Position numbers and translations under genes: made by a program. The notes beneath the pieces are model-generated. The model searched no databases and was not told the origin of the DNA. It saw nothing but the letters and a program-made list of their open reading frames with translations. Below, piece by piece: positions 28,959 through 31,784 of a stretch of 64,000 bases of DNA (its first letter is position 1; each line of letters opens with the position of its first letter). Source of the DNA: Escherichia phage PE37; the sequence record NC_054929.1. One strand, 5' to 3'.

Positions 28959-29339
28959 ATGTATAAAGTGTACGCGGATTATCAGGCTAATCCATCTGAA
29001 AAGCCAGATTGCCAAATTGGATGGGCTCATGATACCCTGCTTGAAGCAGTAGATGCTGCTCAAAAATTAGGATATAAATATGTAGAGATTGTTCAACCGA
29101 CAGGAAAAGTTATTACTCTTGAAGAGTTCAATAATATTAAACCGAACTTTTTACTTTTTGCAGGTGATAATTATTATCCTCGCGGTGGATATGCTGATTT
29201 AATCGCGAAAGCCGCTACCGAAGATGAACTCCGTGACATTATCAAAGAAAATGAGAACAAACCAATGTATGGTTCTAATCGCTTTGATTGGTGGCAAATC
29301 GTAAATGCCCACACTCATACTATTGTTGATGAAGGCTGA
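28959..29339 (+). CDS. hypothetical protein
   Basis: ATG after AGGTGA RBS (MYKVYADYQ...). Confidence 0.55.
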   Translation: MYKVYADYQANPSEKPDCQIGWAHDTLLEAVDAAQKLGYKYVEIVQPTGKVITLEEFNNIKPNFLLFAGDNYYPRGGYADLIAKAATEDELRDIIKENENKPMYGSNRFDWWQIVNAHTHTIVDEG

Positions 29340-29341
29340 TA

Positions 29342-29629
29342 ATGATTCTTTATGCGAAAGTATCGTCCATTGAAAATGGATATAAATATGATCAAGACGC
29401 GGCTAAAGCCTTGATTGATGATTATGGCGTTTTAACATGTTTTGAAGTTGAAAAGGTTTACATTGACCGTTCATCTTCTCAAGTTAAATTAGTAAAGGAA
29501 GACCGTAAATTTAATACAGTAAATTTTGATTTCTTTATTGAAACGGAAAAAGGTCCTCTTGAATATGATATTTTCAAGAATCCTTTGGGTCTTGAATGCA
29601 TCGTAAATATGTATTATCATAAATGGTAA
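29342..29629 (+). CDS. hypothetical protein
   Basis: 95 aa ORF, ATGA overlap with upstream. Confidence 0.55.
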   Translation: MILYAKVSSIENGYKYDQDAAKALIDDYGVLTCFEVEKVYIDRSSSQVKLVKEDRKFNTVNFDFFIETEKGPLEYDIFKNPLGLECIVNMYYHKW

Positions 29630-29726
29630 ATATGCTTTAAGAATTATTTGTTATTATTAACTCATATCGCATTGATTAATACCCTCTATCATCAAGGGTT
29701 CTTTCCTGAGAGCCTTTGTTAATAAT

Positions 29727-29799
29727 TGGGAATTAGCCAAGTTGGTAAGGCACTGGATTTTGATTCCAGGATGCAAAGGTTCGAGTCCTTTATTCCCAG
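29727..29799 (+). tRNA. tRNA-Gln (anticodon UUG)
   Basis: Cloverleaf folded by eye: acceptor TGGGAAT/ATTCCCA, anticodon loop TTTTGAT, T-arm GGTTCGAGTCC; CCA not encoded. Confidence 0.8.
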
Positions 29800-29800
29800 C

Positions 29801-29887
29801 GCGAGAATGGTCAAATTGGTAAAGGCACAGCACTTAAAATGCTGCGGAATGATTTCCTTGTGGGTTCGAGTCCCACTTCTCGCACCA
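29801..29887 (+). tRNA. tRNA-Leu (anticodon UAA), type II
   Basis: Acceptor GCGAGAA/TTCTCGC, loop CTTAAAA, long variable arm, CCA encoded. Confidence 0.85.
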
Positions 29888-29892
29888 AATTT

Positions 29893-29966
<74 letters not shown>

Positions 29967-29976
29967 ATTTAATTTA

Positions 29977-30050
29977 CTCCGTGTAGCTCAGTTTGGTAGA
30001 GCGCCTGATTTGGGATCAGGAGGTCCAAGGTTCAAATCCTTGTATGGAGA
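29977..30050 (+). tRNA. tRNA-Pro (anticodon UGG)
   Basis: Anticodon arm CCTGA-TTTGGGA-TCAGG, T-arm CAAGGTTCAAATCCTTG; acceptor has G-U pairs; CCA not encoded. Confidence 0.8.
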
Positions 30051-30052
30051 CT

Positions 30053-30142
30053 GGAGGCGTGGCAGAGTGGTTTAATGCACCGGTCTTGAAAACCGGCAGT
30101 CGCTCCGGCGACTCATAGGTTCAAATCCTATCGCCTCCGCCA
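30053..30142 (+). tRNA. tRNA-Ser (anticodon UGA), type II
   Basis: Acceptor GGAGGCG/CGCCTCC, loop CTTGAAA, long variable arm, CCA encoded. Confidence 0.85.
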
Positions 30143-30147
30143 GTTTT

Positions 30148-30223
30148 GCTGATTTAGCTCAGTAGGTAGAGCAACTCACTTGTAATGAGAAGGTCGGCGG
30201 TTCGATTCCGTCAATCAGCACCA
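30148..30223 (+). tRNA. tRNA-Thr (anticodon UGU)
   Basis: Acceptor GCTGATT/AATCAGC, loop CTTGTAA, CCA encoded. Confidence 0.85.
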
Positions 30224-30224
30224 A

Positions 30225-30299
30225 GGCCCTGTAGCTGGAAGGTTCAAGCAAGCGACTCATAATCGCCAGATGGTGGTTCAATTCCACCCAGGGCCACCA
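30225..30299 (+). tRNA. tRNA with CAU anticodon (Ile2 lysidine-type, or Met)
   Basis: Acceptor GGCCCTG/CAGGGCC, loop CTCATAA, CCA encoded; T4 tRNA-Ile counterpart by position. Confidence 0.8.
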
Positions 30300-30308
30300 A
30301 ATTAATTT

Positions 30309-30395
30309 GGGGAGTTATCCCGTAGAGGTAGCGGTGTGGACTGTAAATCCATTGTCATTGCGACTCGGGTGGTTCGACTCCATCACTCCCCACCA
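30309..30395 (+). tRNA. tRNA-Tyr-like (anticodon GUA), type II
   Basis: Acceptor GGGGAGT/ACTCCCC, anticodon arm GTGGA-CTGTAAA-TCCAT, variable arm with GTC/GAC stem, T-arm GGTGGTTCGACTCCATC, CCA encoded; D-arm imperfect. Confidence 0.6.
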
Positions 30396-30399
30396 ATTT

Positions 30400-30474
30400 G
30401 GATGTGTAGCTCAATGGCAGAGCGATCGCCTGTTAAGCGATTGGTTATAGGTTCGAATCCTATCACGTCCGCCA
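30400..30474 (+). tRNA. tRNA-Asn (anticodon GUU)
   Basis: Acceptor GGATGTG/CACGTCC, anticodon arm ATCGC-CTGTTAA-GCGAT, T-arm ATAGGTTCGAATCCTAT, CCA encoded. Confidence 0.8.
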
Positions 30475-30478
30475 AATC

Positions 30479-30554
30479 CGAGGCATAGCTCAGAAGGAAG
30501 AGCAAGGACCTTCTAAGTCCTAGGTCGTAGGTTCGATCCCTACTGCCTCGACCA
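30479..30554 (+). tRNA. tRNA-Arg (anticodon UCU)
   Basis: Acceptor CGAGGCA/TGCCTCG, D-stem GCTC/GAGC, anticodon arm AGGAC-CTTCTAA-GTCCT, CCA encoded. Confidence 0.85.
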
Positions 30555-30570
30555 ATTAAGTGAGGAAAAT

Positions 30571-30921
30571 ATGAAAGGTAATGTTTATTTAGTAGTTCAT
30601 GATTTAACATTTTATTTTAATCACAATGACACGGTTATTTCTGAACGTGTAATTAATTTGCTTTATCAACACGCGGATTATGTTTATGTCGAAAACGAAT
30701 ATGGTCATTGGCAATTTCTCAAAAATCGTTCATTTGGCTTAGATGGTTACGAATACTTTGAACGTAAAGACCTTTTAGATAAAATTTCGTTATCTACACA
30801 ATATCAAAATCATAAGTCTTTACATAAATGTCGGCTAATTCGAAATGCTGAATCTGCTTATGAAGCAATTGATTTATGGCGTTTACGCCGTGAACAAATT
30901 GATGCTTTAAAAGAATATTAA
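30571..30921 (+). CDS. hypothetical protein
   Basis: 116 aa ORF starting 17 nt after tRNA-Arg, RBS GAGGA. Confidence 0.55.
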   Translation: MKGNVYLVVHDLTFYFNHNDTVISERVINLLYQHADYVYVENEYGHWQFLKNRSFGLDGYEYFERKDLLDKISLSTQYQNHKSLHKCRLIRNAESAYEAIDLWRLRREQIDALKEY

Positions 30922-31099
30922 GAAACCGGGTCGCTACCGGTAAGTCGTCGGACTGATGTTCCCTGTTTAAGGACTGGCATTAATAAATCTTTATGTTTTG
31001 TTAATGTCCTCTTATATCACAGCAGAAACGGCGCACCGAATTATCGATTCGAGGAAATATCTTTGCCGTAAGCCGAGTAGCGTTTTTGACGGAACGTTC

Positions 31100-31235
31100 G
31101 GATATGGTCGAGATATGGCCTTTTAAAAATATTGAGTAGCGTCAACTGCTTAATAACCGGGTTCGAATCCCGGCGTTTCGTACAAACACTTGCCTTAGCA
31201 GGTGGAACCCCGACAAGGTTGCCGCAAGGCTTAGA
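31100..31235 (+). ncRNA. putative small stable RNA (T4 species 1/2 rnaC/rnaD-like), boundaries approximate
   Basis: 390-nt ORF-free interval after the tRNA cluster with a tRNA-like T-arm (CCGGGTTCGAATCCCGG), repeated GAGTAGCGT, ending at a terminator; T4 has stable RNAs near tRNA-Arg. Confidence 0.3.
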
Positions 31236-31262
31236 CCCGACCGAAAGGTTGGGGCTTTTTGG
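31236..31262 (+). terminator. rho-independent terminator (copy 1)
   Basis: Hairpin CCCGACC-GAAA-GGTTGGG followed by CTTTTT. Confidence 0.7.
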
Positions 31263-31270
31263 TATAAATA
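31263..31270 (+). promoter_or_regulatory. late promoter TATAAATA
   Basis: Exact TATAAATA about 40 nt upstream of the 31311 ATG. Confidence 0.6.
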
Positions 31271-31310: not shown

Positions 31311-31784
31311 ATGAAATCATATACTCAATTTTTAAATGAAGCGGTGTTAAATGAAGCATCTAGCACCGAAATTCAAGCTGTCGCAAAAGCAGCCATTGCA
31401 GCGGGTAAATATTCTTACAAAGATGCTTCTGATGAATCGCGATTCCAGTTTGCACGCGACATGAAAGCGGAAGGATTTACGGGAAATGCAGTTAGTATGG
31501 CCTGGAAAAGTTTAGTTGCTACTGGCGCTGCTTTTGCAAAGGCTTCGGGTAAACCTGCTCCTAAAGCAGATCCTAAAGTCGCACAAGAGAAAAATATTGT
31601 TAAAGGAATTATCTCCAAATATGAAGCTATCCTTAAAGAGCTTTTAGTAATCAAAACTGAAGGCCAAAAACTAGCTCGTGCTTATAGTTTCAAAGATAAC
31701 CCACATGCTCACTCTCTTGAGTATGTTGAAGACATCCAAAAAATTATTAAAGACCGCATTTGGTCTGCTAAACAAATCAAATAA
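31311..31784 (+). CDS. capsid-targeted internal-protein candidate
   Basis: 157 aa; N-terminus MKSYTQFLNEA resembles the internal-protein capsid targeting sequence; late promoter upstream. Confidence 0.65.
   Translation: MKSYTQFLNEAVLNEASSTEIQAVAKAAIAAGKYSYKDASDESRFQFARDMKAEGFTGNAVSMAWKSLVATGAAFAKASGKPAPKADPKVAQEKNIVKGIISKYEAILKELLVIKTEGQKLARAYSFKDNPHAHSLEYVEDIQKIIKDRIWSAKQIK

Follow-up and report, generated by a model that had tools for sequence, protein, structure and literature searches.

A T2-type tRNA cluster without segB in a T4-like coliphage, with proposed supply and nuclease-buffering roles for its tRNA-Tyr and tRNA-Asn genes

Introduction

The closest described relatives of the locus analyzed here are the tRNA regions of phages T2L, RB1 and RB3, which have been sequenced, lack segB, and contain the tRNA genes Met(CAU), Tyr, Asn and Arg together with the ORFs trna.1 and trna.2 (Brok-Volchanskaya et al., 2008, NAR 36:2094, PMC2330249). 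SegB's preferred cleavage site spans 27 bp at the 3' end of tRNA-Asn and has a GGTTCRANTCC core, with CCAR at its 3' end; five bases (G6, A16, G18, A26 and A27) set this Asn site apart from the tRNA-Ser site of T2L (PMC2330249). In crosses of T4 with T2L, segB was recovered in 99.6% of the progeny, and the excluded part of the T2L region measured about 1250 bp; the tRNA region of T4 is itself non-essential for phage development (PMC2330249).

The locus is topical, since phage tRNAs are now seen to counter tRNA-cleaving nucleases of the host. The Septu system EcB88 cleaves tRNA-Tyr in its variable loop, and infection under Septu is restored by overexpressed or amplified T6 tRNA-Tyr; a deletion of the T6 tRNA region makes that phage more sensitive to Septu, and T4, which has no tRNA-Tyr, cannot escape (Chihara et al., 2026, Nat Commun, PMC13096335). 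Septu cleaves the T6 tRNA-Tyr too, which is described as relatively unstable, and wild-type T6 with a single copy of the gene is still inhibited (PMC13096335), so one copy of tRNA-Tyr protects partially at most. The tRNA-Tyr of T5 rescues infection from retron-Eco7 in a dose-dependent manner (PMC11555353). For the PARIS system, the nuclease AriB cuts the tRNA-Asn(GUU) of E. coli between positions 40 and 41 (U36-A-A-U-C/C41, the slash marking the cut), and the T5 tRNAs for Lys, Thr and Asn act against it; tRNA-Asn is a secondary AriB target, with T5 tRNA-Asn contributing to rescue in some phages, while T4 and T7 were rescued from PARIS without any need for it (PMC12409363).

Here we analyze the tRNA cluster of Escherichia phage PE37 (NC_054929.1) in a stretch of 64,000 nucleotides, which we call the window. 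The region is 96–98% identical to many Tequatrovirus genomes, and the window 96–97%, and by this homology the window belongs to a T4-like coliphage, a Tequatrovirus.

Results

Layout of the cluster

ARAGORN finds exactly ten tRNA genes in the 64-kb window, in a single plus-strand cluster at 29727–30554 with the order Gln-UUG, Leu-UAA, Gly-UCC, Pro-UGG, Ser-UGA, Thr-UGU, CAU, Tyr-GUA, Asn-GUU and Arg-UCU. A preliminary description, made from the letters of the sequence, had proposed a type II tRNA with anticodon GUA and a tRNA with anticodon GUU in this cluster; ARAGORN calls both as tRNA genes, of those kinds and at the same coordinates. The features of the locus are as follows.

29727–30223, plus strand: six tRNA genes from Gln-UUG to Thr-UGU, common to T4 (ARAGORN; Rfam tRNA scores of 59–73 bits)
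30225–30299, plus strand: tRNA with anticodon CAU, T2-type allele (ARAGORN)
30245–30920, plus strand: cassette without T4 homology, comprising the remainder of the CAU gene, the Tyr, Asn and Arg genes and the 116-aa ORF (blastn block boundaries)
30309–30395, plus strand: tRNA-Tyr(GUA), type II, 87 nt (ARAGORN; Rfam 30.2 bits; covariation)
30400–30474, plus strand: tRNA-Asn(GUU), 75 nt (ARAGORN; Rfam 74.1 bits)
30450–30476, no strand assigned: predicted 27-bp preferred SegB site at the 3' end of the Asn gene (sequence comparison)
30479–30554, plus strand: tRNA-Arg(UCU), T2-type allele (ARAGORN; alignment)
30571–30921, plus strand: 116-aa ORF, phrog_3355 (PHROG)
30921–31265, plus strand: homologues of rnaD and rnaC, species 2 and 1 (identity to the annotated T4 RNAs)

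The genes around Tyr and Asn are tightly packed, with spacers of 9 nt between Ile and Tyr and of 4 nt both between Tyr and Asn and between Asn and Arg, and the CCA end is encoded by both the Tyr and the Asn genes. It is likewise encoded in the 90-nt tRNA-Ser-UGA gene, as in T2L. The ORFs that overlap the Tyr and Asn genes are all short (75 aa or less), so none is long enough to suggest coding. The best E. coli matches of the CAU tRNA are genes annotated as tRNA-Ile, at 79–82% identity; by this likeness it is an Ile2 (lysidine)-type tRNA, the ARAGORN label 'Met' merely reading the anticodon.

Downstream of tRNA-Arg, the 116-aa ORF is present in T2 (gp136), ime09 and the phage vB_EcoM_11B_SA_NWU (11B) and absent from T4 and T6, and it probably corresponds to either trna.1 or trna.2, the T2L ORFs of the 2008 paper. 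The ORFs flanking the tRNA genes have no Pfam match and fall into PHROG families of unknown function. The rnaD/rnaC region is 94% identical to the annotated rnaD/rnaC of T4 and 97% identical to that of T6, and a search of it against Rfam found no family. All genes of the cluster lie on one strand, and a terminator scan places a terminator-like hairpin followed by a T run at 31236–31262, after rnaC, where the transcription unit likely ends. In a promoter scan, consensus matches did not exceed their frequency in shuffled sequence, and we assign no promoter.

A cassette that differs from that of T4

The annotation of T4 (NC_000866) lists exactly eight tRNAs, as the preliminary description had stated, and the window has all eight of their anticodons, arranged in the T4 order; the T4 interval between Ile and Arg is occupied by segB, a homing endonuclease gene of the sort that the description had placed there. 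The two loci share their genomic position, with trna.2 as the upstream neighbour and rnaD/rnaC downstream, and the sequence from Gln to the start of Ile is 94% identical (blastn, window positions 29157–30244, including the six upstream tRNA genes). T4 homology ends at 30244, 20 nt inside the CAU tRNA gene, and restarts at 30921, where rnaD begins. Boundaries were taken from blastn blocks against T4, T2, T6, ime09 and 11B.

Between these boundaries lies a cassette of about 676 bp (a distinct Ile, Tyr, Asn, a distinct Arg and the ORF) that corresponds to 845 bp in T4 (Ile, segB, Arg). Neither Tyr nor Asn nor the 116-aa ORF is present in T4, which carries the GIY-YIG gene segB instead and has rnaD and rnaC directly after Arg. 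The CAU and UCU tRNA genes of the window have the Ile and Arg anticodons of T4 and clearly different sequences, being identical or nearly identical to those of T2; the CAU gene is identical to those of T2 and ime09 and diverges from T4 and T6 past its first 20 or so nucleotides. Thus, Tyr and Asn are indeed extra relative to T4, but the earlier picture of two genes inserted between Ile and Arg does not hold, since the Ile and Arg genes differ as well and an ORF is added, which makes this an alternative cassette rather than a two-gene insertion.

A published T2-type arrangement with a predicted SegB site

Compared with T2 (NC_054931.1), the tRNA-Asn gene is 100% identical, the tRNA-Tyr gene is 98.9% identical (one base), and the Ile and Arg alleles match. 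The window also shares with the T2-type form the absence of segB, the gene order (CAU tRNA, Tyr, Asn, Arg, a small ORF, the stable RNAs), a tRNA-Ser ending in CCAG, and an intact 27-bp preferred SegB site. T2 differs in carrying a 133-aa ORF in place of tRNA-Thr, which leaves it with nine tRNAs against ten here, and in having U40 in tRNA-Tyr, where the window has C40, making a G30–C40 pair. By these comparisons the ten-tRNA layout is an already known one, the T2-type, segB-less form published in 2008 for T2L, RB1 and RB3 and annotated in T2, Kha5h and hundreds of Tequatrovirus genomes. A literature search for genome papers listing the ten-tRNA set gave nothing useful.

The predicted SegB site at 30450–30476, GGTTCGAATCCTATCACGTCCGCCAAA, starts with GGTTCRANTCC and contains CCAR, and it differs from the window's own tRNA-Ser site (30118–30144) at exactly the five positions G6, A16, G18, A26 and A27. 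A tblastn search of the 64-kb window with T4 SegB found no SegB homologue. With the site present and no SegB homologue in the window, the locus would be a homing target and not an endonuclease carrier.

T6 resembles the window in having tRNA-Tyr directly after a CAU tRNA, and differs in having segB in place of Asn, T4-type Ile and Arg genes, and no Pro or Ser. Since the window has no segB, the T6-style tandem amplification driven by SegB cannot start from its own genes.

The tRNA-Tyr gene

The tRNA-Asn forms a canonical type I cloverleaf with anticodon GUU and discriminator G73, and scores 74.1 bits against Rfam RF00005 (E = 7e-17). For tRNA-Tyr the score is only 30.2 bits, where the gathering score is 29, and the acceptor stem is mis-registered; in a permissive Rfam scan its top match before clan competition was tRNA-Sec, under that family's own threshold. 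The low score results from an irregular D arm, which has one mismatch and one G–U pair. In the ARAGORN fold the tRNA-Tyr has a 7-bp acceptor stem, a 5-bp anticodon stem with a 7-nt loop containing U33 and G34-U35-A36, and a T arm with a 5-bp stem and a GTTCGA-type loop; its variable region is 15 nt long with a 3-bp stem. Identity elements for TyrRS include a long variable arm that forms a stem of its own and A73 as the discriminator, and all 12 phage homologues of the gene carry A73, GUA, such a long arm and CCA.

Covariation was assessed on a cloverleaf of 23 pairs in eight distinct phage homologues, drawn from T2, T6, an rV5-like phage, a large E. coli plasmid, a T5-like phage, a Felix O1-like phage and a Klebsiella phage. 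Across these eight, standard pairing is found in 98.4% of cells and 10 of the 23 pairs have changed on both sides, values that none of 500 shuffles reached; sliding the pair partners by 1–3 columns lowers pairing to 45–61%. In the eight homologues, pairing reaches 100% in the helices of the acceptor, anticodon, variable arm and T arm, and 87.5% in the D helix. The compensatory changes in these stems point to selection on the RNA.

Allele classes and prevalence

The locus occurs in at least six allele classes:

T4: eight tRNAs and segB
T6: T4-type Ile, Tyr, segB and Arg, without Pro or Ser
T2: nine tRNAs, with an ORF replacing Thr
The window, ime09 and Kha5h: ten tRNAs in the same order
JLBYU22 and 4E10: 11 tRNAs, including His
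vB_EcoM_11B_SA_NWU: 11 tRNAs and an endonuclease 51% identical to SegB

The second tRNA-His annotated in JLBYU22 at the Asn position, considered as a possible anticodon switch, turned out to be an annotation error, as ARAGORN reads GTT there.

Prevalence was taken from the phage GenBank (INPHARED) collection, counting records that cover at least 80% of the query:

Tyr+Asn pair: 434 phage records
T4-type segB block: 131 phage records
Block with tRNA-His after Asn: 216 phage records

The eight-tRNA set of T4 is therefore a minority state in this collection, the Tyr+Asn allele being about three times as common. The exact Tyr–Asn junction pattern was found in two contigs of IMG/VR, a collection with few T-even coliphages, and INPHARED was preferred for that reason.

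Homologues of the tRNA-Tyr and tRNA-Asn genes

Close relatives of the tRNA-Tyr gene are found well outside the T-even phages. Identities to the window's gene are:

Kha5h: 100%
T6: 97.7% (2 nt differ)
rV5-like phage (Vequintavirus): 96.6%
E. coli plasmid pEC881_2: 94.3%
Karamvirus: 90.8%
phAPEC8-like phage: 85.1%
Felix O1-like phage: 84.1%
T5-like phage (Bas33): 81.8%

The plasmid pEC881_2, of about 109 kb, we take to be a phage-plasmid. The variable-arm core GTCATTGCGACTCG is conserved in this phage-borne tRNA-Tyr family, including in the T5-like Bas33, and the Asn gene often adjoins Tyr in those other phages. The T5 family resembles the window in its isotypes and anticodons, as well as in this core of a Tyr gene that is 82% identical in Bas33; it differs in that the phages are unrelated and carry a large tRNA cluster under its own strong promoter.

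The chromosomal genes of E. coli (tyrT/V/U and asnT/U/V/W) share with the phage genes their anticodons, the discriminators A73 (Tyr) and G73 (Asn) and the type II form of tRNA-Tyr, but differ in the variable arm, the D arm and the anticodon stems. Identity is 66.7% between Tyr and tyrU and 61.8% between Asn and asnT, and together with the differences in the arms these low values argue against a recent capture of the genes from the E. coli chromosome. When 5,426 E. coli genomes were searched with blastn, no close homologue turned up on a chromosome, and a recent capture from the host was rejected on this ground: 274 of the 289 matching places lie on plasmids, the best matches being plasmids of about 110 kb at 84% identity, and among the matches listed all 12 are plasmids of 72–112 kb, most of them near 110 kb. 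The spread of homologues points to exchange among enterobacterial phages rather than to capture from the host.

Codon usage

We compared codon usage in the window with a baseline of 42 annotated E. coli K-12 genes. Asn codons make up 61.9 per 1000 in the window (AAT 46.9) against 37.6 in E. coli (AAT 13.8), and Tyr codons 46.1 per 1000 (TAT 36.0) against 26.0 (TAT 14.1), corresponding to enrichments of 1.65-fold for Asn, 1.77-fold for Tyr, 3.4-fold for AAT and 2.6-fold for TAT. The excess is similar on both strands and comparable to that of CAA (1.7-fold) and CCA (1.6-fold), codons served by two phage tRNAs of the canonical eight. Lys is enriched about 1.6-fold without any phage tRNA-Lys, and His is under-used (16 per 1000 against 26), yet a tRNA-His has been added in sister alleles, so demand does not single out Tyr and Asn.

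Discussion

Our analysis very probably describes a Tequatrovirus with a segB-less, T2-type tRNA cluster that would be a target of SegB and that includes genuine tRNA-Tyr and tRNA-Asn genes, for which we propose roles both in translational supply and in buffering against tRNA-cleaving nucleases. The low Rfam score of tRNA-Tyr, its tRNA-Sec match and its D stem, with a mismatch and a G–U pair, might suggest a degenerate tRNA pseudogene, as might some GenBank records that omit the gene or call its homologue tRNA-Pseudo or tRNA-OTHER. The covariation results and the conservation of the anticodon, discriminator, variable arm and CCA throughout the homologues speak against such decay, as do the published data on the T6 copy, which differs by 2 nt, is visible on Northern blots and rescues infection (PMC13096335). 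We rejected the pseudogene reading on the covariation and T6 data; the chance that it is right is negligible, and we regard it as effectively refuted. A recent event in which a T4-like ancestor with eight tRNAs gained Tyr and Asn from a phage or from the host is also unlikely. The same Tyr family occurs at 94–97% identity in unrelated genomes (the rV5-like Vequintavirus and pEC881_2) and at 82–91% in T5-like, Felix O1-like, phAPEC8-like and Karamvirus phages, often with Tyr beside Asn, which suggests exchange between phages. However, the flanking Ile and Arg genes are also unlike those of T4, so that what is seen is a cassette difference and no clean insertion, and the plasmid-borne matches and low identities to tyrU (67%) and asnT (62%) leave the E. 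coli chromosome without a close homologue. The direction implied by 'inserted' is doubtful on two further counts: conversion driven by SegB homing runs from the Tyr+Asn allele to the T4 allele (PMC2330249), and the Tyr+Asn allele outnumbers the segB allele of T4 about threefold.

Taking the two genes as genuine tRNAs within an alternative cassette, their function has several possible readings. They could serve translational supply only, meeting the AAU and UAU demand of an AT-rich phage without any defence role; the enrichment of Asn and Tyr codons on both strands, in the same range as that of CAA and CCA, fits this well enough that we consider it a real possibility, though not the probable one. 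Tyr-GUA and Asn-GUU duplicate abundant, multi-copy host tRNAs and fill no rare-codon gap, the Lys and His counts run counter to a demand-driven set, and the nearly identical T6 tRNA-Tyr has a demonstrated anti-Septu effect (PMC13096335). It is quite improbable, on the other hand, that the pair is largely neutral passenger DNA kept by linkage, with the Asn gene serving chiefly as a SegB-like homing or recombination site. A predicted preferred SegB site does fall within the Asn gene, the cluster is mosaic, with at least six allele classes of which some have endonuclease genes, and the T4 tRNA region is non-essential (PMC2330249); but compensatory changes have kept every Tyr pair in the acceptor, anticodon and T stems and in the variable arm, and the Asn gene is 100% the same as in T2 while the region 30225–31265 is only 94% identical.

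Tyr-GUA, Asn-GUU and His-GUG are queuosine-family tRNAs in E. coli. A bolder proposal would make Tyr and Asn, with His in sister alleles, a dedicated counter-defence module and not an adaptation to codon usage, in which Asn would escape AriB, Tyr, with a variable arm of the T5 type, would evade or out-titrate retron-Eco7 and Septu, and segB, with its preferred site inside the Asn gene, would remove an anti-defence gene as it spread. In this strong form the proposal is speculative and rather unlikely. Independently of that proposal, the window's tRNA-Tyr is 97.7% identical to the T6 tRNA-Tyr, a phage tRNA with a demonstrated rescue phenotype, and from this likeness we infer that it would do the anti-Septu job of the T6 tRNA at single-copy dosage. 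The anticodon arm of tRNA-Asn ends in G39-C40-G41, so that it reads U36-A-A-G-C-G41 and does not match the AriB motif at two positions, 39 and 41; at positions 39–41, E. coli has U39-C40-C41 and the alternative, Kha5h-type allele has U39-C40-A41. The window's tRNA-Asn may, with these changes, be a poorer substrate for AriB.

Returning to the combined reading of supply and buffering, we can outline how the locus might work. By analogy with T4 biology, the ten tRNAs, the ORF and rnaD/rnaC would be transcribed together from the plus strand as a polycistronic precursor, from which RNase P and host 3' exonucleases would cut out each tRNA, the CCA end being already encoded in Tyr and Asn. The two tRNAs would add Tyr and Asn decoding capacity in a phage whose codon counts indicate about 1.7-fold the E. 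coli usage, mainly of UAU and AAU. When Septu or retron-Eco7 cleaves the host tRNA-Tyr, the phage tRNA-Tyr could sustain translation, as the T6 example suggests, and tRNA-Asn may likewise buffer against the PARIS nuclease AriB. In a mixed infection with a segB phage, SegB would cut at the 3' end of Asn and the cassette would be converted to the T4 or T6 form.

At the tRNA locus, then, T4 is not the typical T-even phage. If the counter-defence module were real, this locus would pit a selfish endonuclease against immunity evasion, a conflict that could explain why the segB allele is in the minority.

Flanking tRNA genes and tRNA-Ser

The tRNA-Tyr(GUA)/tRNA-Asn(GUU) pair of PE37 lies between two tRNA genes whose anticodons, CAU and UCU, are common to the window and T4. 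Sequence comparison showed, however, that the window's genes differ from those of T4 and are T2-type, that is, of the cluster form lacking segB, the T4 homing endonuclease gene. The preliminary description's claim that PE37 carries the same eight tRNAs as T4 thus holds by anticodon only, and fails for these two genes by sequence.

Features of the window
30053-30142: tRNA-Ser gene, 90 nt, CCA(G) encoded
30225-30299: CAU (Ile2-type) tRNA gene, one flank of the Tyr/Asn pair
30479-30554: UCU (Arg) tRNA gene, other flank of the pair
30571-30921, + strand: 116-aa ORF, phrog_3355 (function unknown), between tRNA-Arg and rnaD
30921-31265, + strand: homologues of T4 stable RNAs rnaD and rnaC (94-97% identity)
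31311-31784, + strand: 157-aa ORF, phrog_2280 (function unknown), flanked by the terminator of rnaC and the homologue of e.8

The tRNA-Ser gene of T2L likewise encodes CCA(G), whereas that of T4 does not and is 87 nt long; the CCAG of tRNA-Ser has been tied to the position of SegB cleavage (PMC2330249). The annotated tRNA-Thr of T6 (L006 2648-2722) received no ARAGORN call, while the window's was called.

Sequences downstream of the cluster

The 116-aa ORF, which has no match in Pfam, is present in T2, ime09 and 11B (vB_EcoM_11B_SA_NWU) and absent from T4 and T6. The rnaD/rnaC region matches no family in Rfam and is closed by a terminator-like hairpin (31236-31262). The 157-aa ORF also occurs in ime09 and 11B, and no homology was found at its position in the T4, T2 and T6 loci compared.

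Asn and Tyr genes in other genomes

Two tRNA-Asn alleles were distinguished among Tequatroviruses by sequence comparison: the T2-type, carried by the window, and one found in Kha5h and an IMG/VR contig (L014), which shares only 84% identity with it and has U39-C40-A41 in the anticodon stem. The adjoining Tyr gene is 100% identical across both.

Features of comparison loci (own coordinates)
L015 1000-1074: Kha5h-type tRNA-Asn (Kha5h)
L017 1001-1083: long-variable-arm 'tRNA-Asn(GUU)' (phAPEC8-like)
L016 1731-1812: the same (Karamvirus)
L020 578-662: the same (Klebsiella phage Roth20)
L019 311-565: Asn-Tyr-Asp order (Felixounavirus Barry)
L009 2427-2673: Asn-Tyr-Thr order (plasmid pEC881_2)
L011 and L012 1193-1268: inserted tRNA-His(GUG)
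L001 2490-3240: sister-allele region with tRNA-His(GUG) and the SegB-like gene (11B)

The long-variable-arm genes, 82-86 nt in length, carry the Asn anticodon on a type II body, an uncommon architecture for a tRNA-Asn. Adjacent Asn and Tyr genes likewise occur in unrelated phage genomes, those of Barry and the presumed phage-plasmid pEC881_2. In E. coli, the queuosine-family tRNAs are those for Tyr, Asn, His and Asp.

Several public records contain annotation errors: that of ime09 (L002) omits the Tyr gene and places the tRNAs on the wrong strand, that of JLBYU22 (L011) names Asn as a second His, and that of APECc02 (match H74) names the Tyr homologue tRNA-Pseudo/OTHER.

Sister alleles with tRNA-His

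In sister alleles (11B, L011 and L012), tRNA-His(GUG) is inserted 3' of Asn. The 11B insert also brings an endonuclease gene with 51% identity to SegB, the final 42 residues of its product matching T4 SegB exactly, and beside this SegB-like gene the T2-type Asn gene is intact.
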